Source of the DNA: a phage
Strand: one strand, 5' to 3'
Sequence record: PZ583743.1
Length of the DNA stretch: 64,000 nucleotides
The translations under genes and the position numbers were made by a program. This document shows, one piece after another, positions 3,759 through 59,608 of this stretch. The notes under the pieces were generated by a model that saw nothing but the letters and a program-made list of their open reading frames with translations, was not told where the DNA came from and did not search any database. Within the stretch, counting starts at the first letter, position 1, and each line of letters opens with the position of its first letter.

Positions 3759-5270
3759 ATGACTGACATTAAAGTACATTTTTATGATTTTAGTCACGTG
3801 AGAATTGATTGTGAAGAAAGTACATTTCATGAACTCCGTGATTTCTTTAGCTTTGAAGCTGATGGGTATCGTTTTAATCCGAAGTACAAATATGGTCATT
3901 GGGATGGACGAATCCGTCTTTTAGATTATAATCGCCTTCTTCCATTCGGCTTAGTCGGGCAAATTAAAAAGTTCTGTGATAACTTTGGCTATAAAGCTTG
4001 GATTGACCCACAGATTAACGAAAAAGAAGAATTATCAAGAAAAGATTTTGATGAATGGCTTTCTAAATTAGAAATCTATTCAGGAAATAAAAGAATTGAA
4101 CCGCATTGGTATCAAAAAGATGCAGTGTTCGAAGGATTAGTTAATCGTCGTAGAATTCTTAATCTTCCAACATCCGCAGGTAAATCCTTAATTCAAGCTT
4201 TGCTTGCGCGTTATTATTTGGAAAATTATGAAGGTAAAATTCTTATCATTGTTCCAACAACTGCTTTAACAACTCAGATGGCTGATGACTTTGTTGACTA
4301 TCGTTTATTCAGTCACGCAATGATAAAGAAAATTGGCGGTGGAGCATCAAAAGATGATAAATATAAAAATGATGCGCCAGTCGTTGTTGGTACATGGCAA
4401 ACTGTAGTAAAACAACCGAAAGAATGGTTCTCACAGTTTGGAATGATGATGAATGATGAATGCCATCTTGCTACAGGAAAAAGTATTTCATCTATCATAT
4501 CAGGTTTAAATAACTGCATGTTCAAATTCGGTTTGTCTGGTTCATTACGCGATGGCAAAGCCAATATCATGCAGTATGTTGGAATGTTCGGTGAAATATT
4601 TAAGCCAGTAACGACCTCTAAATTAATGGAAGATGGACAAGTAACTGAGTTAAAAATTAATAGTATTTTTCTTCGCTATCCCGATGAGTTCACTACTAAA
4701 TTAAAGGGAAAAACTTACCAAGAAGAAATAAAAATTATTACTGGACTCAGTAAAAGAAATAAATGGATCGCTAAATTAGCTATTAAACTTGCGCAAAAAG
4801 ATGAAAACGCTTTTGTCATGTTTAAGCATGTATCACATGGTAAAGCTATTTTCGATTTAATTAAAAATGAATACGATAAAGTTTATTACGTATCAGGGGA
4901 AGTTGATACCGAAACTCGAAACATAATGAAAACCTTAGCTGAAAACGGTAAAGGAATAATTATAGTAGCTAGTTATGGTGTATTTTCTACTGGTATTTCA
5001 GTTAAAAATCTGCATCACGTTGTTTTAGCACACGGTGTTAAATCTAAAATTATTGTATTGCAAACAATAGGTCGTGTATTACGTAAGCATGGTTCTAAAA
5101 CAATCGCAACGGTCTGGGACCTCATTGATGATTGCGGTGTTAAGCCAAAATCTGCTAATACGAAAAAGAAATATGTTCATTTGAACTATCTTTTAAAACA
5201 CGGCATTGATCGTATTCAGCGCTACGCAGATGAAAAATTTAATTACGTAATGAAAACAGTTAATTTATAA
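3759..5270 (+). CDS. uvsW: UvsW, SF2 RNA-DNA/DNA-DNA helicase
   Basis: 503 aa; Walker A PTSAGKS, DECH box (MNDECHLATGK); recognised as T4 UvsW. Confidence 0.93.
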   Translation: MTDIKVHFYDFSHVRIDCEESTFHELRDFFSFEADGYRFNPKYKYGHWDGRIRLLDYNRLLPFGLVGQIKKFCDNFGYKAWIDPQINEKEELSRKDFDEWLSKLEIYSGNKRIEPHWYQKDAVFEGLVNRRRILNLPTSAGKSLIQALLARYYLENYEGKILIIVPTTALTTQMADDFVDYRLFSHAMIKKIGGGASKDDKYKNDAPVVVGTWQTVVKQPKEWFSQFGMMMNDECHLATGKSISSIISGLNNCMFKFGLSGSLRDGKANIMQYVGMFGEIFKPVTTSKLMEDGQVTELKINSIFLRYPDEFTTKLKGKTYQEEIKIITGLSKRNKWIAKLAIKLAQKDENAFVMFKHVSHGKAIFDLIKNEYDKVYYVSGEVDTETRNIMKTLAENGKGIIIVASYGVFSTGISVKNLHHVVLAHGVKSKIIVLQTIGRVLRKHGSKTIATVWDLIDDCGVKPKSANTKKKYVHLNYLLKHGIDRIQRYADEKFNYVMKTVNL

Positions 5271-5286
5271 GGGCTTCGGCCCTTTG
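5271..5286 (+). terminator. GGGCUUCGGCCC tetraloop hairpin after uvsW (terminator or RNA stability element)
   Basis: GGGCttcgGCCC directly after the stop codon, followed by TTTGG; T-run is short. Confidence 0.45.
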
Positions 5287-6483: not shown

Positions 6484-6881
6484 TATACTCTATTACTGGA
6501 AGCCAGTTGCAGTTTTATCTGCTCAATATCATCAGGGTTATCGATGACCGAAAAGCGTATTTCTACTATAAGAGTATAATCATCATAAACCGGTATTACA
6601 TTAACTGCTAATTTATCAATACGTGGCTCGTAGTTTCTTACTGCGCTTTCGATGTTACGCTCAACTGTATCAGCAGTAAGAGGAGTCATATTCTCAAAAA
6701 GTTGATCAGATAAATCGCATCCAAATTCTGGGTCAAACGGTCTCGACCCTTTTCTGGTTGTGATAATTCCCAAAAGGCTATTTTTAATTGACCTTAATCC
6801 AAGAGATCTAGAAACATCTTTGTCCCAATCCATTTTCATTTCTGGGTCAATGTCAGAATAAAGCTTATTAATATTTGCCAT
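6483..6881 (-). CDS. 25: Baseplate wedge protein gp25
   Basis: 132 aa; length and position match T4 gp25. Confidence 0.9.
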   Translation of the reverse strand: MANINKLYSDIDPEMKMDWDKDVSRSLGLRSIKNSLLGIITTRKGSRPFDPEFGCDLSDQLFENMTPLTADTVERNIESAVRNYEPRIDKLAVNVIPVYDDYTLIVEIRFSVIDNPDDIEQIKLQLASSNRV

Positions 6882-7507
6882 TACAATAGCTCAAAGAATT
6901 CTTTGAGTCCTCTTATTACATGAGCGTGAGTTTTTCCACACTCTGGACACTTAATTGGAACAGCCAAATAAACAGTAGGCTTTAAAAGCATATCTTTTAT
7001 AGCTACAATATCTGACTCTGTGATGATAGAATATAAATCTTCCAACTCTTTTTCATTTAAGTCTTCAATTGGAATGCTTTCCCCGTTAGCATGAATCGTT
7101 TCTATACATGATACTATCATGTGGGCTATATTTTTATCATCAAAAATTTTAGGGTAATGGAACTTAATTTTAATGTCACCCAGTGTATACCAGAGGTCTT
7201 CTGGTGCATCTATTTGCGTATGTAATAGATTTATATGGGTTGGTATTTCAGTTCCACAGGTGCACTTCCAGGAGTTTTCGTGATTAACTTCCCCAAGAGA
7301 ATGCGCCCATAAATGAATCAACAAGAGTTCTGATTCTTGGCGGTTTAAATCTTTTGCATTTGTACAGTCTTTGATTAGCTTTTTAACGATCTCTTCTACT
7401 GAACCGTTCTTTTTAGCAGTAATAAGTTCTAGATATTCTTTAAGAGTAAATGCGCGACAGTTGATTATTTTAGAACCAACTCTCACGTCAAATTTGTATT
7501 CATACAT
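6881..7507 (-). CDS. 26: Baseplate hub protein gp26
   Basis: 208 aa; Cys-rich (CTCGT…CPECG); T4 gp26 length and position. Confidence 0.88.
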
Positions 7508-13797: not shown

Positions 13798-13801
13798 CAA
13801 T

Positions 13802-13819
13802 GGGGACCGAAAGGTCCCC
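13802..13819. terminator. Bidirectional terminator hairpin GGGGACC-gaaa-GGTCCCC
   Basis: Perfect 7-bp GC stem between convergent gene 54 and the 96-aa ORF; T-run follows on the plus strand. Confidence 0.6.
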
Positions 13820-13825
13820 ATATTT

Positions 13826-18362: not shown

Positions 18363-18383
18363 AAATTAAAGGCCCGAAGGCCT

Positions 18384-18572
18384 TTAATAATCTAATGGTA
18401 AGAGAGTACGATATATTTCAAACTTTGGCCCTTTTTCATAGGCATCAAATGTTTCTGTAAATTTATTATAAGCATATGCATCTACAAATTCGAGAATGAC
18501 TTGTGATACAGAAGTAGAAACATCTCCACCTTCTTTTTGAGCTATAACAATTGTTTCTAAGTAAGCTTTCAT
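18384..18572 (-). CDS. Hypothetical protein (62 aa) between ligase and alt
   Basis: ORF with ATGA coupling to gene 30; followed by hairpin AAAGGCCcgaaGGCCTTT at 18368-18385. Confidence 0.6.
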   Translation of the reverse strand: MKAYLETIVIAQKEGGDVSTSVSQVILEFVDAYAYNKFTETFDAYEKGPKFEIYRTLLPLDY

Positions 18573-21982: not shown

Positions 21983-22320
21983 TAGAACCTCATCTGAAAT
22001 CCGTGCGATTTAACATTACCACCACCAATGTCAGAAATATTAATTTCACGCGCAATTGAAGGGTCAATGTCAATTTCACGATTAAGTTTAGTGATAGCTA
22101 AAGTATCACGCCCATTTACAGTACGGAACTCTAAAGGGCAGACTACATTAACATAGTTTTTAATCGATTCACTAGTAGGCTGCAAATGAGCAGGAAGGTC
22201 TTTAGGCGCCTTAGAGAAAACCACTTCACAGAAATTTTTGCGGGTATCAAAATAAGTAGTCATAAACATAACATTTTCCTCAGTAAGGGGCCAAAGCCCC
22301 TCATTTATTTTAAATATCAA
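21982..22320 (-). CDS. Hypothetical protein (112 aa)
   Basis: ORF in the 30.x accessory block. Confidence 0.6.
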   Translation of the reverse strand: MIFKINEGLWPLTEENVMFMTTYFDTRKNFCEVVFSKAPKDLPAHLQPTSESIKNYVNVVCPLEFRTVNGRDTLAITKLNREIDIDPSIAREINISDIGGGNVKSHGFQMRF

Positions 22321-23076: not shown

Positions 23077-23186
23077 TTTATTCTCCTTTGTTTGTGTAAG
23101 ATAATACTATCACAAAGGAACCACACTGTAAACAACTTTGTGCAATCTTTGGAAAATAAAAAAGGACTCCCGAAGGAGTCCTCAAC

Positions 23187-29873: not shown

Positions 29874-31461
<1,588 letters not shown>

Positions 31462-31491
31462 AATAAAATGGGCCTTGCGGCCCACTCCTTA
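31462..31491 (-). promoter_or_regulatory. Hairpin-split translation initiation region of denA (SD, GC hairpin, AUG)
   Basis: Minus strand reads UAAGGAG-UGGGCCGCAAGGCCCA-UUUUAUU-AUG: the Shine-Dalgarno overlaps the nrdB stop and is 23 nt from the AUG, bridged by a 6-bp GC stem. Confidence 0.5.
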
Positions 31492-32658
31492 AAAATATTT
31501 TTTAAAACTCATCATAACTTTATCATCAACATCATTATCAATCTGTGCTACAAGGTAAGATGACAGTTCTACTTCTTGCGGCGCGGATTGAACATTATCA
31601 GAATTAAGGTATTCACGAATCCAAGGATACGGATGTTTAACCGGAGCATCGGTAATTGGGCATGGAAGACCACACTGTTTCATACGAGATACAGTTAAGT
31701 AATCAATAAAGCTCCACATGCTATTTGTATTTAATCCAGGAACATCACCATCTTTAAATAAATGAACCGCCCAGTCTTTTTCTTGGCGGTTAACTTCCAT
31801 GAAAATATCAACTGCTTCTTGTTCACACTCTTGAGCAATTTTAACCCATTCATCACCATCAGTGCCAAGTTGAAGTTGACGAATAATATATTGGGTGCCT
31901 TTAAGGTGAAGTTGCTCATCACGCGCAATGAACTTCATAATCTTGGCATTACCTTCCATGATTTCCATATTCTTATGGAAGTTAAAGGTACAGGCGAAAG
32001 ATACGTAAAAACGAATAGCTTCCAATGCATTGATTACGTGCAGGCAGAGGTAAAGAGATTTCATTAGTGCTCGTTTAGTACATTCAACAACTTTGCCTAA
32101 CTCTTCTTTACGAAATCCTTCTGATAAAATTCCTTCATAATCTTCAACCGCATTCTGATATTCACGAGTCTTAACTAGAACGTCATCATAATAACGACCA
32201 ATAGATTCAGCACGTTTCATGATAGCTTTATCTAATACAATCTCATCAAATACCTTTGATGGATCAGTATAAAGATTTCGCATAATATGAGTATATGAAC
32301 GGCTGTGAATAGTTTCACTAAAAGTCCATGTAGCAACCCATGTATCAAGACTTGGGTCTGAAATTAACGACATAAGTACAGCAGACGGTGCACGACCCTG
32401 AATGCTATCCAAAAGTGATTGATACTTCAGGTTATTAGTAAAAATATCTTGCTGATACTGAGGAAGCTTGTTAAATTGTGCAGCATCCATCATCAAGTTT
32501 ACTTCTTCAGGACGCCAGAAAAATGACAACTGTTTTTCGGTTAAATCTTCAAAAACTTTATGACGTTGAATATCATAACGCGCAATACCAAGACCTGAAC
32601 CGAAGAACATAGGTTCTTTTAAAACATCAACTGGATTTGTATTAAAAACTGTGCTCAT
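31489..32658 (-). CDS. nrdB: Ribonucleotide reductase small subunit NrdB (uninterrupted)
   Basis: 389 aa contiguous ORF with R2 di-iron ligand motifs; no intron interruption. Confidence 0.95.
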   Translation of the reverse strand: MSTVFNTNPVDVLKEPMFFGSGLGIARYDIQRHKVFEDLTEKQLSFFWRPEEVNLMMDAAQFNKLPQYQQDIFTNNLKYQSLLDSIQGRAPSAVLMSLISDPSLDTWVATWTFSETIHSRSYTHIMRNLYTDPSKVFDEIVLDKAIMKRAESIGRYYDDVLVKTREYQNAVEDYEGILSEGFRKEELGKVVECTKRALMKSLYLCLHVINALEAIRFYVSFACTFNFHKNMEIMEGNAKIMKFIARDEQLHLKGTQYIIRQLQLGTDGDEWVKIAQECEQEAVDIFMEVNRQEKDWAVHLFKDGDVPGLNTNSMWSFIDYLTVSRMKQCGLPCPITDAPVKHPYPWIREYLNSDNVQSAPQEVELSSYLVAQIDNDVDDKVMMSFKKYF

Positions 32659-32709
32659 AAATTTTCCGCTTAGTTAATAGATAGTGACTCGTCCGTGAGT
32701 CAAATTATA

Positions 32710-34974
32710 TCATAATTTACAGGATGAACAATCTTCAGCTTTTGGAGTTTCTATTTCATAATCATCAGTACCAGAACCGTCACGTGTATTATGATAATAG
32801 AAATTTTTTCCGCCAAAATACCAAAAGTACAAAAGGTCATCAATCATTACAGACATTGGAACCTTTCCTTTTGGAAAAATCTGCGGGTCATAATATGTAT
32901 TCGCTGAAGCTGATTGACATACCCATTTCAGCATAATAGCTACCTGCGTAAGATAAGGTTTATTACCTTTCTTAGCTAATTTCCACGTATAATCATAGAG
33001 GTCTATGTTATGCTCAATATTGGGCACGACTTGATTAAAGGAACCCTCTTTTGATTCTTTAACAGAGACTGGTCCGCGTGGAGGCTCGATACCGTTTGTA
33101 CTGTTAGAAACTTGGGAAGATGACTCACATGGCATAAGTGCTGATAATGTGCTATTACGGATGCCAAAGAGCTTAAGGTCTTCCCGCAGCGACGACCAGT
33201 CACAAACGTATTTTGGAGCTGCGATTTGGTCAATCTTTTTATTGTACCAGTCGATAGGTAATTCGCCTCGAGACCAACGAGTGTCTGAATAATACTCGCA
33301 AGGTCCTTTTTCTTTGGCGAGCTTAATGGATGCTTTAATGAGTCCATACTGTAATCTCTCAAATAGTTCATGTGTTAAATCGTTAGCATCTTCATAAGAA
33401 GCAAAGTTACTTGCTAGCCAAGCTGCATAGTTAGTAACACCTACACCAAGATTTCGACGCTTTTTAGCTTTTTCTGCTTCAGGAACTGGATATCCTTGGT
33501 AATCCAAAAGATTATCAAGAGCGCGAACTTGAACTTCTGCTAATTCATTAATTTTATCTTGGTCTTGCCAATCGAAGTTATCCAACACAAATGCAGATAA
33601 CGTGCACAATCCAATTTCGGCATCAGGGCTATTCACATCATTTGTTGGAATAGCAATTTCACAGCACAAGTTACTCTGACGAATAGGTGCCTTTTCACGA
33701 ATAAACGGAGTATAGTTATTCGTATTATCAATGAACTGTACATAAATCCTTGCTGTTCCTGATCGTTCAGTCATGAGCAATTCAAACAGTTCACGGGCTT
33801 TAATACGCTTTTTACGAATATTAGGGTCTTTTTCTGCGGCTTCGTATAATTCGCGGAAACGGTCTTGGTCTTTAAAATAAGAATAATAAAGTTCGCCACC
33901 CATTTCATGCGGACTAAACAAAGTAATGTAATCGTTCTTTCCGAATCGTTCCATCATCAAATCATTCAGCTGGACGCCATAATCCATATGACGAATACGG
34001 TTTTCTTCTACGCCTTTGTTATTTTTCAAAACGAGAAGATTTTCAACTTCCAAATGCCAAATAGGATAATAAGCAGTAGCAGCGCCGCCACGAATTCCGC
34101 CTTGTGAACATGATTTAACAGCAGTCTGAAAATGTTTCCAAAAAGGAATAACGCCAGTATGACGCACTTCACCTGTGCCAATCTTAGAACCTTCGGCACG
34201 AATCATACCAACATTAATGCCGATTCCAGCTCGTTTAGAAATATACTCAACAATTGAAGCAGAAGCCTTATTGATAGACTTCAGCGAATCACCTGCTTCA
34301 ATAACAACGCATGAACTAAACTGTCGAGTTGGAGTACGACATCCAGCCATAATAGGAGTTGGCAGTGAAATCTGTCGAGTAGATACTGCTTCATAAAAAC
34401 GAATAACATGTTTTAATCTGTCAACAGGTTCATCTTGATGCAATGCCATTCCAATAGTCATAAATGCAAACTGTGGAGTTTCATAAATTTGACCAGTGGT
34501 TTTATCTTTAACGAGATATTTTTCTTTTAATTGCATCGCCCCGGAATAAGTAAATTCCATATCCCGCTCGTGCTTAATTTTTGATTCTAAAAATGTAATT
34601 TCTTCTGCAGAATATTTTGACAACAATTCAGGGTCGTATTTACCTTCATTTACACAGTAAGAAATATGGTCAATAAATGAACGGGGCTCATACTGCCCGT
34701 AAACATGTTTACGAAGAGCAAACATTAAACAGCGCGCAGCTACATATTGATAATCAGGCTCTTCAACTGAAATAGAATTCGCAGCAGCCTTAATTACAAT
34801 GGTTTGAATGTCATCAGTGGTCATTCCATCACGGAGATATGATTTAATATTTTCATATAATTCATAAGGATCTACAGATGTTCCTTCAGCTGCCCAAGAT
34901 AAAACTTTAATAATTTTTTGCGGGTCAAAGCTTTGAGAAACACCACTACTTTTGATAACATTAATTAATTGCAT
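32710..34974 (-). CDS. nrdA: Ribonucleotide reductase large subunit NrdA
   Basis: 754 aa, same length as T4 NrdA; class Ia RNR active-site cysteine context. Confidence 0.95.
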   Translation of the reverse strand: MQLINVIKSSGVSQSFDPQKIIKVLSWAAEGTSVDPYELYENIKSYLRDGMTTDDIQTIVIKAAANSISVEEPDYQYVAARCLMFALRKHVYGQYEPRSFIDHISYCVNEGKYDPELLSKYSAEEITFLESKIKHERDMEFTYSGAMQLKEKYLVKDKTTGQIYETPQFAFMTIGMALHQDEPVDRLKHVIRFYEAVSTRQISLPTPIMAGCRTPTRQFSSCVVIEAGDSLKSINKASASIVEYISKRAGIGINVGMIRAEGSKIGTGEVRHTGVIPFWKHFQTAVKSCSQGGIRGGAATAYYPIWHLEVENLLVLKNNKGVEENRIRHMDYGVQLNDLMMERFGKNDYITLFSPHEMGGELYYSYFKDQDRFRELYEAAEKDPNIRKKRIKARELFELLMTERSGTARIYVQFIDNTNNYTPFIREKAPIRQSNLCCEIAIPTNDVNSPDAEIGLCTLSAFVLDNFDWQDQDKINELAEVQVRALDNLLDYQGYPVPEAEKAKKRRNLGVGVTNYAAWLASNFASYEDANDLTHELFERLQYGLIKASIKLAKEKGPCEYYSDTRWSRGELPIDWYNKKIDQIAAPKYVCDWSSLREDLKLFGIRNSTLSALMPCESSSQVSNSTNGIEPPRGPVSVKESKEGSFNQVVPNIEHNIDLYDYTWKLAKKGNKPYLTQVAIMLKWVCQSASANTYYDPQIFPKGKVPMSVMIDDLLYFWYFGGKNFYYHNTRDGSGTDDYEIETPKAEDCSSCKL

Positions 34975-39040: not shown

Positions 39041-39059
39041 GGGGACCTCTAGGGTCCCC
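39031..39059 (-). terminator. Rho-independent terminator of gene 32 (GGGGACCCUAGAGGUCCCC + U-run)
   Basis: Perfect 7-bp GC stem followed by UUUUUUAUUUC on the minus strand, 20 nt after the gene 32 stop. Confidence 0.7.
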
Positions 39060-48071: not shown

Positions 48072-51020
48072 ATGGCTACTTTAAAACAAATACAATTTAA
48101 AAGAAGCAAAACTGCAGGTCAACTTCCTGCCGCTTCAGTATTAGCCGAAGGTGAATTGGCTATTAATTTAAAAGATAAAACAATTTTCACAAAAGATGAC
48201 TCAGGCAATGTTATAGAATTAGGTTTAAAATATGGAGGAACAATTGATGGTTCTTTAACTGTTAATGGAAATATAATTGGAAATTTAACAGGTAACGCTG
48301 CAACTGCAACGAAATTAAAAACAGCACGAAAAATTAATGGTATATCCTTTGATGGGTCAAAAGATATCACGCTAACTCCATCTGACATAAATGTCAATAG
48401 CACAACATTTATAAAAAATAATGGCGAATTACCTGTTGATGCTAATTTAGATGAGTATGGGCCTGTTGAAGAATATCTTGGAGTTTGGTCGAAAGCAACT
48501 TCAACCAACGCTCAACCAGCAAATAAATTTCCAGAACAAAATGCTGTAGGTGTGCTAGAAGTATTTGTGGCCGGTCAATTTGCTGGTACTCAGAGATATA
48601 CAACTAGATACGGAAATGTTTATATTCGTTCCTTGACTGCTACATGGAACGGAGTAAATGGTCCGTGGAGTGTGTGGCGAAATATTCAATCCGGTACTCG
48701 TCCACTGTCAACAACAATTGATCTTAATGATCTAGGAGGCGCTGAACACTTTGGTTTGTGGCGAAATAGTTCAAATTCCATTGCTACCTTTGACAGAAAT
48801 TTCCCAGAAGAAGGATCGTCAGCTCAAGGACTTTTAGAAGTATATGAAGGTGGAAACTATTCTCGCACACAGAGATATACGACCAGATTTGGTGTTGTTT
48901 ATACTCGCTGTCTTACTGCTGCGTGGGATGCTTCTGCGCCTAAATGGGGACCGTGGCAACAAGTCGGTAATGTCACACCGGCGACTTTCTATGACGGAAA
49001 CCTGAATGATTTTAAAACTCCTGGGTTATATAATATTTTAGGCACTGATGCCGTTATTAATTGTCCTACAGGCGAAGGTTTACCAGCCGTTATTGTTGGT
49101 TTGCTGGAAGTTAAACAACGTGCTTCTGGCGGTGCTATTTTCCAAAAATTTACTACTGCCGGAACGGGTGAAACTACTCGCGATCGTATTTTTGAGCGCG
49201 CATATACCGGCGGTGCGTGGGGTGCATGGAACGAAGTATATACATCTTATTCTCTGCCAATTACTTTGGGTATGGGTGGTATTAAAGCTCAATTAGCGGA
49301 GTTAGATTGGCAAACCTTTGATTTTGTCCCTGGTAGTATGTTTAGCGTTCCTTTGAACAAAATAAAGAACATGCCAGCTAATATGGATTGGGGTACGATT
49401 GACGGAAACTTAATTATGTTTTCTGTTGGTCCTAGCGAGCACACCAGCACAGGACGTACTGTTCAGGTTTGGCGTGGTACTGTATCCCAGACAAACTACC
49501 GTTATTTTGTCGTTCGTGTATTCGGTAATTCAGGAAATAGAACTTGCACAGTTCGTCGCGTTGTTCTTGAAGATGGTCGCCATTCTTGGACGGCACAACA
49601 AGATTTTAGGGGCGCGGTTAATCTTTACGGTGCTACATATCTTCGTTCAAACAATAAATTAACATTAGATCCGAGTGCATATATTCAAGCACCAGCAAGC
49701 GGTTCTGGTTCTAATACTTACGCAAATCAGAATACTACTATTGCGCCATTATATCAGGCCATTGACGATTCAAATAAAAACCAGTTTGCTCCTATTGTAA
49801 AACAGAAAAACACTGTAACAAATATTACTATGGCTTCTGGTATGGATATTGCTAGTTCAGAATATCGTATCATTGCTCAAGGTGATTTATCCGCTACTGG
49901 AACTACAGCTAATGAATTAGCTACATGGCGTTTCTTGCCGTCTGGCCGATTCATGTCACAAAGCCGAGTTTATGCTGGCGCAGCATTCCTTAATACCGAT
50001 GGTAATATTGCTGGTTCAATCTGGAAGAAATATAACAATGCGACAAATTTAGATGCTGCCTTGAATACTCGCGTAGGTAAAGGCGGTGATACGATGACAG
50101 GTCGGTTAACAATCAATGCACCTAATGATTCTATCGTATTATCAACAACTGCTAGTAATTCTTTGCATATTCGCGGTGACATAGACGGGACTGGTAACTG
50201 GTATATTGGCAAGGGTGGTGCTGATAATTCGCTAGCATTTTATAGCTATGCTACTCAGGCGGCAGTACATATCACAAACAATGGTGAGATTTCGCTAAAT
50301 CCACAAAATATCGCAATGGTTAACGTTAACCGCGATCGTGTACACATTAACGGTTCTGGATGGATTGCTAGACAACCGGGTGATTGGGGCAACCAATGGC
50401 GAGTAGAAGCTCCATTATTCGTTGATCATGGTTATGTTTCACAGGATTGTTATTATCCTATTCTTAAAGCAAGAAGCGTTATAACCAATCAAGGATATAG
50501 CACCGCTGTTGACTTTGGTATGCGTCGTATTCCATCACAGTGGGGGCAAGCAATCATTCGTGTCGGATCCACGGAGGCTTCTCCTGATGCTGGACACCCA
50601 CAAGCTGTGTTTGAATTCCATCATGATGGATTCTTTTATACACCAGGAAATGGTAGCTTTAGCGATGTGTATATTCGTTCTGACTCCCGTCTCAAGATTA
50701 ATAAAGAAGAATTAGAATATGGAGCGGTCGAAAAAGTTTGCCGACTGAAAGTTTATATTTACGATAAAGTTAAGTCTATTAAAGACCGTAGTGTTATTAA
50801 ACGTGAAGTTGGTATTATTGCTCAGGACCTTGAAAAGGAATTACCGGAAGCTGTATCTAAAGTTGAAGTTGATGGATCTGATGTTCTGACAATTTCTAAC
50901 TCTGCTGTGAATGCTCTTTTAATTAAGGCTATTCAGGAAATGAGTGAAGAAATTAAAGAATTGAAAACGCCTCTCTTTACTAAAATTGTTCGCAAAATTA
51001 GTAAATATTTTAAATTCTAA
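48072..51020 (+). CDS. 37: Long tail fibre distal subunit gp37 with C-terminal intramolecular chaperone (S74-like) domain
   Basis: 982 aa; N-terminus MATLKQIQFKRSK… as in T4 gp37; C-terminal ~110 aa (…YIRSDSRLKINKEELEYGAVEK…GIIAQDLEKELPEAV…NALLIKAIQEMSEEIKELK) resembles auto-cleaving chaperone domains. Confidence 0.9.
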   Translation: MATLKQIQFKRSKTAGQLPAASVLAEGELAINLKDKTIFTKDDSGNVIELGLKYGGTIDGSLTVNGNIIGNLTGNAATATKLKTARKINGISFDGSKDITLTPSDINVNSTTFIKNNGELPVDANLDEYGPVEEYLGVWSKATSTNAQPANKFPEQNAVGVLEVFVAGQFAGTQRYTTRYGNVYIRSLTATWNGVNGPWSVWRNIQSGTRPLSTTIDLNDLGGAEHFGLWRNSSNSIATFDRNFPEEGSSAQGLLEVYEGGNYSRTQRYTTRFGVVYTRCLTAAWDASAPKWGPWQQVGNVTPATFYDGNLNDFKTPGLYNILGTDAVINCPTGEGLPAVIVGLLEVKQRASGGAIFQKFTTAGTGETTRDRIFERAYTGGAWGAWNEVYTSYSLPITLGMGGIKAQLAELDWQTFDFVPGSMFSVPLNKIKNMPANMDWGTIDGNLIMFSVGPSEHTSTGRTVQVWRGTVSQTNYRYFVVRVFGNSGNRTCTVRRVVLEDGRHSWTAQQDFRGAVNLYGATYLRSNNKLTLDPSAYIQAPASGSGSNTYANQNTTIAPLYQAIDDSNKNQFAPIVKQKNTVTNITMASGMDIASSEYRIIAQGDLSATGTTANELATWRFLPSGRFMSQSRVYAGAAFLNTDGNIAGSIWKKYNNATNLDAALNTRVGKGGDTMTGRLTINAPNDSIVLSTTASNSLHIRGDIDGTGNWYIGKGGADNSLAFYSYATQAAVHITNNGEISLNPQNIAMVNVNRDRVHINGSGWIARQPGDWGNQWRVEAPLFVDHGYVSQDCYYPILKARSVITNQGYSTAVDFGMRRIPSQWGQAIIRVGSTEASPDAGHPQAVFEFHHDGFFYTPGNGSFSDVYIRSDSRLKINKEELEYGAVEKVCRLKVYIYDKVKSIKDRSVIKREVGIIAQDLEKELPEAVSKVEVDGSDVLTISNSAVNALLIKAIQEMSEEIKELKTPLFTKIVRKISKYFKF

Positions 51021-51025
51021 CAACA

Positions 51026-51045
51026 AGGGGGAAATGCCCCCTTTG
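51026..51045 (+). terminator. Weak terminator-like hairpin after gene 37
   Basis: AGGGGG-aaatg-CCCCCT followed by TTTGG; short T-run. Confidence 0.35.
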
Positions 51046-51056
51046 GAGTATAAATT

Positions 51057-51839
51057 ATGGCAGTAGTTAGTGTTCCTGGTTGGATTGGAAGTTCAGCCGC
51101 AAATGAAACAGGGCAACGATGGATGAGTCAAGCGGCTGGTCAACTAAGATTGGGTGTTCCTTGCTGGATGAGTCAATTTTCAGGTCGCTCGCGAGAAATT
51201 ATTCATACACTTGGTGCAGACCATAACTTCAATGGTCAGTGGTTCCGTGATAGATGCTTTGAGGCAGGTAGTACACCTATAGTGTTTAATATTACAGGTG
51301 ATTTAGTATCATATTCTAAAGATGTTCCTTTATTCTTTATGTACGGAGATACACCGAATGAATATGTTCAGTTGAATATACATGGCGTAACGATGTATGG
51401 TCGTGGCGGGAATGGCGGTAGCAATAGTCCTGGATCAGCTGGGGGTCATTGTATTCAAAATGATATTGGTGGGAGACTAAGAATTAATAATGGCGGAGCT
51501 ATTGCTGGCGGTGGCGGTGGCGGTGGCGGCGGATATTATTCTCCTTTTTCACAAATGAGATTGACCTTTGGCGGTGGCGGCGGTCGTCCGTTTGGCGCTC
51601 CGGGCGGATCTATTGATATGCAATCAGGAGCAACTGCTGGTACTATTTCTGCACCAGGCTCAGGGTCTGTGAACGGTATCTATAGCGGCGGGTCTGGTGG
51701 TGAAGTTGGATCCGCAGGGGGTAGATGTAATATTCGTGGTCAAGGATATGAATACGATGGCGGAGCTGCTGGTTATGCCGTCATAGGGTCTACGCCGACA
51801 TGGCAAAACGTTGGAGCAATATATGGTCCAAGAGTATAA
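51057..51839 (+). CDS. 38: gp38 receptor-recognising adhesin (T2-type) with glycine-rich motifs
   Basis: 260 aa; poly-Gly blocks ([38 protein letters not shown]) separated by variable segments. Confidence 0.88.
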
Positions 51840-55282: not shown

Positions 55283-55356
55283 AGTTGATAGTTGTATAGT
55301 ACCACAGTATGCTTTGGTTGTAAACAGTTTTGTGAAAAAAATTTTGAAATAAAAAA
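55283..55356 (-). repeat. Repeated terminator-UP element-early promoter cassette, copy 2 (motA promoter; GTTTAC at 55320-55325)
   Basis: Near-identical to 38968-39040; -10 TACTAT at about 55296-55301; A/T-rich UP element. Confidence 0.7.
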
Positions 55357-55376
55357 GGGAGAGCCTCAGCTCTCCC
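55347..55376 (-). terminator. Terminator GGGAGAGCUGAGGCUCUCCC + U-run downstream of gene 52
   Basis: 8-bp GC stem followed by UUUUUUAUUUC on the minus strand. Confidence 0.65.
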
Positions 55377-55527
55377 TAAAATTACTGCATGACTGTGATA
55401 ACTGTCATGATAACACGTTGAATGCCGAACGCAAGAAGACCTCCTGCTACGGCTGGAACAACACCTAGCCCCGCTAGTAAAATGCCACCAGATACTAATG
55501 CCGCGCTTGTAATACCAATGAATGGAC

Positions 55528-57159: not shown

Positions 57160-57240
57160 TCACTGGCGTCCGAAGACGCCTTTAGTTTTAAGATTGTTAC
57201 GATAGAACTGCATCACGTGTTCGTTATGGAAATTACTCAT
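57160..57240 (-). CDS. stp: Stp peptide (26 aa), activator of the host PrrC anticodon nuclease
   Basis: Hand-translated [26 protein letters not shown], which matches the T4 Stp peptide as I recall it; start overlaps the ndd stop. Confidence 0.8.
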
Positions 57241-59590: not shown

Positions 59591-59608
59591 AAAGGGCCGA
59601 AGCCCTTT
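59591..59608 (-). terminator. Terminator-like hairpin AAAGGGC-cgaa-GCCCTTT
   Basis: Perfect stem flanked by T-rich sequence on both strands. Confidence 0.45.

Follow-up and report, generated by a model that had tools for sequence, protein, structure and literature searches.

Ribosome-binding sites (RBSs) in which a hairpin bridges the distance between the Shine-Dalgarno (SD) sequence and the start codon are textbook curiosities from two late genes of phage T4. The present work concerns a junction of the same appearance between nrdB, the gene for the ribonucleotide reductase small subunit, and denA, the gene for endonuclease II, in a 64,000-nucleotide (nt) stretch of phage DNA (PZ583743.1). 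The phage is a Tequatrovirus (T4-like phage), and the whole stretch is called the window below. In T4 genes 38 and 25 the SD is split from the AUG by a structure, and mutations that destabilise the structure lower initiation (PMC3014915). Folding shortens the distance from SD to AUG from 22 to 5 nt in gene 38 and from 27 to 11 nt in gene 25 (PMC3014915). The gene 25 structure is conserved among the close T-even phages and restricted to them (PMC3014915).

The T4 gene 37–38 junction, read from T4T, is GCA UAA GGAG A GGGGC UUCG GCCCC UUCUAAAU AUG. On the minus strand of the window, the nrdB–denA junction runs UAU UUU UAA GGAG UGGGCC GCAA GGCCCA UUUUAUU AUG. In both junctions the UAA of the upstream gene overlaps an AAGGAG, which is followed after 0–1 nt by a GC stem of 5–6 bp with a tetraloop, then by 7–8 nt and the AUG. 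By our count the distance from SD to AUG is 23 nt at both genes (22 for gene 38 in PMC3014915). The best reading of the nrdB–denA junction is that it would be a third, hitherto unlisted split ("accommodated") RBS of the T4 gene 38 type. Its parts are as follows.

31489..32658, minus strand: nrdB, 389 residues, no intron; from the open reading frame (ORF) list, with the nrdB label in Tequatrovirus records of 98–99% identity.
31491-31489, minus strand: nrdB stop codon UAA, preceded by UAU UUU.
31485..31490, minus strand: SD AAGGAG, sharing two bases with the nrdB stop; from sequence, anti-SD pairing and conservation.
31469..31484, minus strand: hairpin UGGGCC-GCAA-GGCCCA, with the 5′ arm at 31484-31479, the GNRA loop at 31478-31475 and the 3′ arm at 31474-31469.
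31473..31476, minus strand: inner AAGG, formed by the loop AA and the opening GG of the 3′ arm, at a distance of 11 nt to the AUG; from the SD census.
31462..31468, minus strand: U-rich, SD-free spacer UUUUAUU, also a terminator-like U-run; from sequence, anti-SD energy and tail score.
31051..31461, minus strand: denA, 136 residues, AUG at 31461-31459; from the ORF, a match to PDB 2WSH and an AUG conserved in all relatives.

Between the final G of the SD and the A of the AUG there are 23 nt, 16 of them taken up by the hairpin, and with the hairpin folded the single-stranded distance is 0 + 7 nt. The 6-bp hairpin alone has a folding energy of −11.6 kcal/mol. For the junction of 39 nt the folding energy is −16.4 kcal/mol (z = −3.86), a value reached by 1 of 200 shuffles. 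UAAGGAG pairs with the 3′ end of 16S RNA at −8.7 kcal/mol, and the spacer, at +2.8 kcal/mol, does not pair. The junction thus has a distal SD (more than about 15 nt from the AUG), a stable hairpin in between, no competing SD, and a folded distance within 5–11 nt, the functional range given by the two known cases (PMC3014915). A search of Rfam with the junction gave no match near the gathering score, the best being L20_leader at 23.1 against 58.7 bits.

A sequence-only reading of the window had reported, 23 nt ahead of the denA AUG, an AAGGAG that overlaps the nrdB stop, with a 6-bp GC hairpin between it and the AUG. Both are borne out by the sequence, and folding of the nrdB–denA junction gives the values above. 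Its claim that AAGGAG is the only good SD also stands. The inner AAGG pairs with the anti-SD at −3.0 kcal/mol, lies hidden in the stem and has no counterpart in the UUCG-loop hairpins of other genera; it was rejected as a closer SD because it is weak, sequestered and specific to Tequatrovirus, and the spacer offers none. The further proposal that the folded hairpin would bring the SD to normal spacing, as in T4 gene 38, is supported by the 23-nt geometry match and by the covariation and the conserved SD and spacer described below. The inner AAGG, an in-frame GUG, the use of that GUG inside the element as the denA start in the T4 RefSeq record, and the terminator likeness were missing from that reading.

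The 900 bp round the nrdB–denA junction are 98–99% identical to JEP6, ime09, T4 and many others. To look beyond these, DenA relatives were taken from 36 IMG/VR loci, and 20 distinct junction types were aligned. The types are phylogenetically related, and counts over them overstate independence. The module is present at the nrdB–denA junction in 35 of the 36 loci. It comprises a UAA that overlaps or precedes AAGG(A/N), 0–2 nt (4 in one type), a GC stem of 4–7 bp usually capped by UUCG (C(UUCG)G in the relatives), 6–10 nt without an SD triplet, and the AUG. Named GenBank genera that carry it number at least seven (Tequatrovirus, Mosigvirus, Dhakavirus, Marfavirus, Winklervirus, Jiaodavirus and Tegunavirus), and it reaches down to 60% DenA identity. 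In Krischvirus, Tulanevirus and Slopekvirus denA is not beside nrdB, and these genera therefore cannot test the module.

The upstream AAGG(A) is the one conserved primary-sequence element, and in about 19 of the 20 types it precedes the stem by 0–2 nt. TAAG is at least 90% conserved over the 20 types, and AGGA is kept even where its offset from the stop shifts by 1 nt; the GGAG itself is not conserved beyond a few genera. None of the spacers of 19 types contains GGA, GAG or AGG. The two single-stranded segments, SD to stem (0–2 nt) and stem to AUG (6–10 nt), add up to 6–10 nt in about 19 types, with a single exception.

The stem is conserved as pairs. Over the 20 types 95% of the stem cells are paired, compared with 77% in shuffled alignments, and none of 500 shuffles reached the observed values. 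Four of the six stem pairs show changes on both sides; the closing pair occurs as U-A, A-U, C-G and G-C, and pair 5 as C-G, G-C and A-U. When the 3′ partner was slid by 1–3 columns as a control, at most 68% of the cells were paired. RNAalifold independently gives exactly the 6-bp helix. The hairpin is maintained by compensatory evolution.

A scan was made for the same arrangement at other starts. For each ATG it looked for a hairpin of −6 kcal/mol or better ending 4–11 nt upstream, an SD core no further than 3 nt from the 5′ side of the stem, and a spacer free of GGA, GAG and AGG. It covered both strands of the window (2,499 ATG) and nt 1–112.5 kb of T4, together one genome-equivalent, with the gene 25 junction as positive control. 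Three of the 2,499 ATG in the window qualify, namely those of denA and gene 25 and one that is not a gene start. The T4 part yielded no real gene start and one internal ATG, and T4's own gene 38 and denA junctions were both scored by the same scan. Real gene starts with the arrangement in one T4 genome-equivalent are thus those of genes 25, 38 and denA only. As few ATG qualify and genes 25 and 38 are recovered, the arrangement is rare and the scan is sensitive and specific.

GC hairpins themselves are not rare. The window contains about 15 intergenic ones directly after stop codons, mostly with UUCG or related tetraloops. Examples are:

279-300, intergenic GC hairpin.
1868-1883, intergenic GC hairpin.
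5269-5284, intergenic GC hairpin.
13800-13821, intergenic GC hairpin.
18365-18388, intergenic GC hairpin.
22286-22301, intergenic GC hairpin.
23163-23182, intergenic GC hairpin.
39041-39059, intergenic GC hairpin.
55356-55377, intergenic GC hairpin.
57165-57180, intergenic GC hairpin.
59591-59608, intergenic GC hairpin.

They differ in what follows, some having long U-runs as in strong terminators and others leading at once to an SD and a start. Apart from the denA hairpin, seven stand close before a gene (near 5269, 22301, 38698, 51025, 57180, 59608 and 60801). In each of these the hairpin comes first and the SD second, and immediately 5′ of the stem there is no additional GGA element. Hairpins of this kind thus do not generally bring an upstream SD with them, and among the GC-hairpin junctions of the window the inverted order, SD before hairpin, occurs at denA alone.

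These findings make it fairly probable that the SD and the hairpin jointly drive the initiation of denA. In the proposed path, the hairpin would form on the mRNA once it is transcribed. The 30S subunit would then pair with the SD, paying about 4 kcal/mol to peel away a weak GGAG:UUUU extension of the stem and gaining −8.7 kcal/mol. With the hairpin looped out, the AUG would come to lie 7 nt past the base of the helix, within working distance of the P site, and the 136-residue endonuclease II could be initiated. With less confidence, the hairpin and U-run may stop or pause some RNA polymerases or block 3′ exonucleases, which could protect the 3′ end of the nrdA–nrdB message and keep the level of the nuclease gene low. 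Ribosomes that finish nrdB might also add to denA initiation, the stop codon being inside the SD.

Several points weigh against a split site. Folding of free Tequatrovirus RNA predicts 95–100% pairing of the GGAG with the U-run. Three groups have annotated the hairpin as a terminator (the vB_EcoM_G8, fPS-90 and PhiKpNIH-6 records), and the spacers across genera are 63% U, compared with the A-rich spacers that follow ordinary SDs. The module of Muldoonvirus has a weaker SD, UAAGAG. In a rough SD census about a quarter of the mapped starts (20 of 76 flagged) had no 4-nt SD at normal spacing, and a missing proximal SD alone therefore does not force the use of a distal one; many of the flagged starts are dubious automatic calls or have 3-nt cores, and the census, too crude for a statement that every gene has an SD, was not relied on. 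The literature searched, with older T4 papers outside its reach, yielded no experiment on the junction and no mention of a denA hairpin or SD. Finally, a single record was found to lack the module, that of Yersinia phage fHe-Yen9-01 (KY593455/NC_055716; locus ~1490-1504), in which SD and hairpin have been lost together and the nrdB TGA overlaps the denA ATG (TTATGA). Seeing that a stop/start overlap stands in its place there, the module is, judged by this junction, dispensable, and coupling would suffice for denA expression. The 3′ end of nrdB in fHe-Yen9-01 resembles that of Dhakavirus VR5 (85%) and its denA resembles those of Tegunavirus TG1 and phiR1-RT; the junction looks recombinant.

The predicted pairing of GGAG with the U-run suggests another function, in which the extended helix (GGAG:UUUU, 10 bp, −16.4 kcal/mol) is a repressor that hides the SD and opens under particular conditions. 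Both the minimum free energy and the centroid structures contain this pairing, with G11–G13 unpaired at a probability of at most 0.05, and hairpins that hide an RBS are common for T4 nucleases (PMC3014915), those of e, I-TevI and Aeh1 mobE being of this type. However, the four extension pairs show no compensatory change, two of them are unpaired in 8 of 13–19 sequences, and the RNAalifold consensus drops the extension. Freeing the SD costs 0.3–4.8 kcal/mol, never more than with permuted spacers and less than the gain from SD/anti-SD pairing (−8.7 kcal/mol). In no type does the natural spacer pair with the SD more than permuted spacers do, and in 6 of 15 types it pairs less than at least 90% of the permutations. 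With neither covariation, nor a consensus helix, nor an excess over permuted spacers, the sequestering helix was rejected, and we regard such a repressor as very improbable. Because the extension is unsupported and the spacers never exceed permuted pairing, the SD looks as if it is kept available and not hidden.

The terminator labels raise a stronger competitor. The hairpin may be first of all a leaky intrinsic terminator, or a barrier to 3′ exonucleases, of the nrdA–nrdB message, with denA translated from read-through RNA. Initiation of denA would then depend on the AU/U-rich leader through S1, or on ribosomes coming from nrdB, and the AAGGA would be incidental. In the window the GC stem with UUUUAUU directly behind it fits the textbook form of an intrinsic terminator, and its TransTermHP-style tail score is −4.77. 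This falls between the range of the window's clear terminators (−5.3 to −5.6) and that of its hairpins with an SD behind them (−1.8 to −2.5, with an outlier of −3.6 at 59608). A weak terminator tuning a nuclease gene is known from the same nrd region, where weak internal terminators act on mobE (PMC2790892). A T4 time course puts denA RNA in the "middle" class and the RNAs of nrdA, nrdB and rnlA in the "early" class (PMC9697503 supplement); in the literature searched no T4 3′-end map was found, and the T4 omics paper gives temporal classes only. Krischvirus E26 also has a hairpin before denA, but with an ordinary SD after it. There (locus ~1448-1497) denA follows an unrelated small gene, and the junction reads UAAUAAGGUGGGCGGGA GAAA UCCCGCC UUUGUUGUG, a terminator-like hairpin, and then the normal SD in GAGGAAAGGAUA AUG.

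However, a terminator leaves unexplained why about 19 of 20 types keep an AAGG(A) 0–2 nt before the stem, an element which the 14 other hairpins of the window do not have. The U-run is not universal either. Tail scores across genera range from −2.0 to −4.9; at −2.0 stand the Muldoonvirus-type spacers AUAAAGCU and GUAAAGCU, which have no U-run, and at about −2.5 to −3 several others. The U residues are no closer to the stem than chance (median 0.5), a value which equals the chance expectation given the composition and is uninformative. The terminator scan of the window did not list the denA hairpin, probably through an artefact of its maximal-stem rule; as the 10-bp G-U-extended stem would swallow the U-run, the miss is not evidence against a terminator. 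We consider it possible, though clearly less probable than joint action of the SD and hairpin, that termination or 3′-end protection is the primary function. The two are not mutually exclusive, and it is plausible that the hairpin serves as a leaky terminator or 3′-end stabiliser alongside a split RBS. As far as the tail scores tell, a terminator role is less deeply conserved than the geometry of SD, hairpin and AUG.

The position of the nrdB stop inside the SD bears on a further possibility. A ribosome terminating on nrdB may be retained by SD/anti-SD pairing and restart at the AUG 30 nt downstream, de novo entry of 30S subunits being minor; the output of DenA would then be a fixed fraction of that of NrdB. 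The stop is embedded in the SD in nearly all types, as it is at T4 37–38, and it is UAA in all 20 types. fHe-Yen9-01 has in place of the module an ATGA overlap, which is the classical arrangement for coupling, and in the more distant phages AS-gz and KP27 denA overlaps its upstream gene. On the other side, UAA is the commonest stop in such AT-rich genomes, and the types in which these features are counted are related. Between the nrdB UAA and the denA AUG lie 27 nt, which include the hairpin of −11.6 kcal/mol, and the stop and start do not overlap in the window. Hand-over as the main route of initiation seems rather unlikely. A contribution of nrdB-terminating ribosomes to a split RBS is plausible, given the stop inside the SD and the ATGA replacement in fHe-Yen9-01.

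The GGAG of the SD is also a potential target of RegB, which cuts GGAG in the SDs of early genes, prefers GGAGRAYARAA and is hindered by secondary structure (PMC3014915). A strong RegB/S1 site at denA was considered and rejected: GGAGUGGGCCG runs straight into the stem, there is no A-rich single strand 3′ of it, and GGAG is not conserved. That the hairpin protects the SD from RegB is a speculation.

The element also contains a second candidate start for denA.

31483..31485, minus strand: in-frame GUG, opening a 144-residue ORF at 31051..31485; from the ORF list, and the annotated start in T4 RefSeq and T4T.

If translation began at this GUG, the protein would have 144 residues and the hairpin would be coding. 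The frame is open from the GUG, and denA is annotated from it with 435 nt in the T4 RefSeq record NC_000866.4 (137951) and in T4T HM137666.1 (137967). In Dhakavirus VR5 (KP007359.1, 140368) the annotation starts from an analogous in-frame AUG inside the SD/hairpin, and the products of T4, T4T and VR5 have 144–145 residues. The GUG is only 3 nt past the nrdB stop, and reinitiation at it is conceivable. However, it abuts or overlaps the SD, leaving zero spacing, and no other SD lies upstream. An in-frame upstream start occurs in 3 of the 20 alignment rows, two from Tequatrovirus (one loop base apart) and one from Dhakavirus, or in 2 of 18 sequence-distinct lineage types; at the other junctions the frame is closed or has no start upstream of the denA AUG. 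The stems change by compensation of RNA pairs, not as codons. The DenA product matches PDB 2WSH, T4 endonuclease II, at E=9e-87, and the crystallised construct begins with a His-tag and MKEI; the E118 numbering of that enzyme fits an MKEI start by a residue count made here on the sequence. Most GenBank relatives, among them RB55, T4 clone 583L, G8 and TG1, annotate the downstream AUG. On the MKEI construct and the lineage distribution the GUG was rejected as the conserved start, a reading that we hold to be most improbable, while it may still give a minor isoform in T4. Since the upstream start occurs in few lineages, has zero SD spacing, and the crystallised enzyme begins with MKEI, the conserved denA start is, by these comparisons, the AUG.

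Annotation stumbles at this junction in other ways. Klebsiella phage PhiKpNIH-6 (locus 279-711) and phage IME341 (locus 412-853) have short internal ORFs and no full-length denA coding sequence (CDS), and in Cronobacter VP8 a "ribosome_binding_site" is annotated at locus 292-297, on part of the spacer AUAAAGCU, which contains no SD. The lack of an SD beside the AUG is the likely cause. Separately, about half of the junction types place the nrdB UAA and the denA AUG in one reading frame (U and A 30 nt apart), which may be chance.

The neighbouring genes are:

34974..32710, minus strand: nrdA; from the ORF list.
From 31034, minus strand: rnlA; from the ORF list.

In the window nrdB is uninterrupted (31489-32658, minus strand), without the I-TevIII intron, and there is no mobE between nrdA and nrdB (32658-32710). 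T4 has both the intron and mobE, and JEP6, otherwise 99% identical, has a homing endonuclease gene between nrdA and nrdB.

A third case of a hairpin-bridged RBS, at a prereplicative nuclease gene, would indicate that the device is not a one-off. The denA module shows compensatory changes over at least seven genera, a wider range than reported for gene 25, and its natural variants would provide material on how the 30S subunit accommodates a helix between the SD and the P site. The element has confused annotation, as seen in the GUG and AUG starts of T4 RefSeq, T4T and VR5, the lost denA calls of PhiKpNIH-6 and IME341 and the terminator-only labels of three records, and recognition of the module would fix the denA start at MKEI (136 residues). 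One hairpin may both define where the transcript of the reductase operon ends and keep translation of the nuclease that degrades host DNA low.

A broader and doubtful idea is that the stop codon inside the SD, the GC tetraloop hairpin, the 7–8 nt and the AUG, as found at nrdB–denA and T4 37–38, form a reusable intercistronic cassette. Such a cassette would combine structure-assisted reinitiation with termination, pausing or message protection and with resistance to RegB. The terminating ribosome would be recaptured by the SD it has just read, and the refolding hairpin would set the AUG in the P site. The hairpin would also terminate or pause a fraction of the polymerases and protect the upstream message, and the stem would replace the A-rich strand that RegB/S1 needs 3′ of GGA, making an early-gene SD resistant to RegB. 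If this were true, the output of the nuclease would be a small constant fraction of the reductase output throughout infection.

Beyond the shared layout given at the outset, the Dhakavirus denA junction has almost the same sequence as that of T4 gene 38. The two sites differ in timing, gene 38 being late and denA prereplicative, in the loop (UUCG at T4 gene 38, GCAA at denA here) and in the tail score of the U-run (−4.77 at Tequatrovirus denA, −3.39 at gene 38). The gene 38 site is validated by mutations, whereas the denA site is known from sequence and computation. Gene 38 of the present phage is of the T2 type (gp38 of 260 residues), and its 37–38 junction (window 51020-51059, plus strand) has the ordinary order, with a hairpin at 51025-51043, GGAG, 8 nt and AUG. 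The split site therefore appears to travel with the T4-type gene 38 cassette.

The gene 26–25 junction (window 6879-6914, minus strand, ATG 6881) reads UAAGAGG A CUCAAAG AAUU CUUUGAG CUAUUGUA AUG. Like denA it has an SD, a hairpin, a short spacer and an AUG, with 1 nt before the hairpin and 8 nt after it. Its stem, rich in AU, is weaker (−6.4 kcal/mol). At gene 25 both SD and hairpin lie inside the gene 26 CDS, which ends in a UAAUG over the start, whereas at denA the upstream ribosomes stop before the hairpin. The denA module spans at least seven genera and the gene 25 structure the close T-evens.

Intercistronic hairpins with C(UUCG)G or GNRA tetraloops form a class first noticed in T4 mRNA (Tuerk et al. 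1988, per PMC4371310). The denA hairpin shares with this class a short GC stem, an extra-stable tetraloop and a place just after a stop codon; the SD follows the hairpin in the seven others close before a gene and precedes it at denA.

The weak intrinsic terminator of T4 mobE gives 30–50% termination and, it was argued, restrains a nuclease gene (Wilson and Edgell 2009, PMC2790892). It belongs to the same nrd cluster as the denA hairpin, and both consist of a hairpin with a short U-run behind it; a similar argument could hold for endonuclease II. The mobE terminator lies inside a coding region and has a 9-bp stem and mapped 3′ ends, whereas the denA hairpin is known from its sequence.

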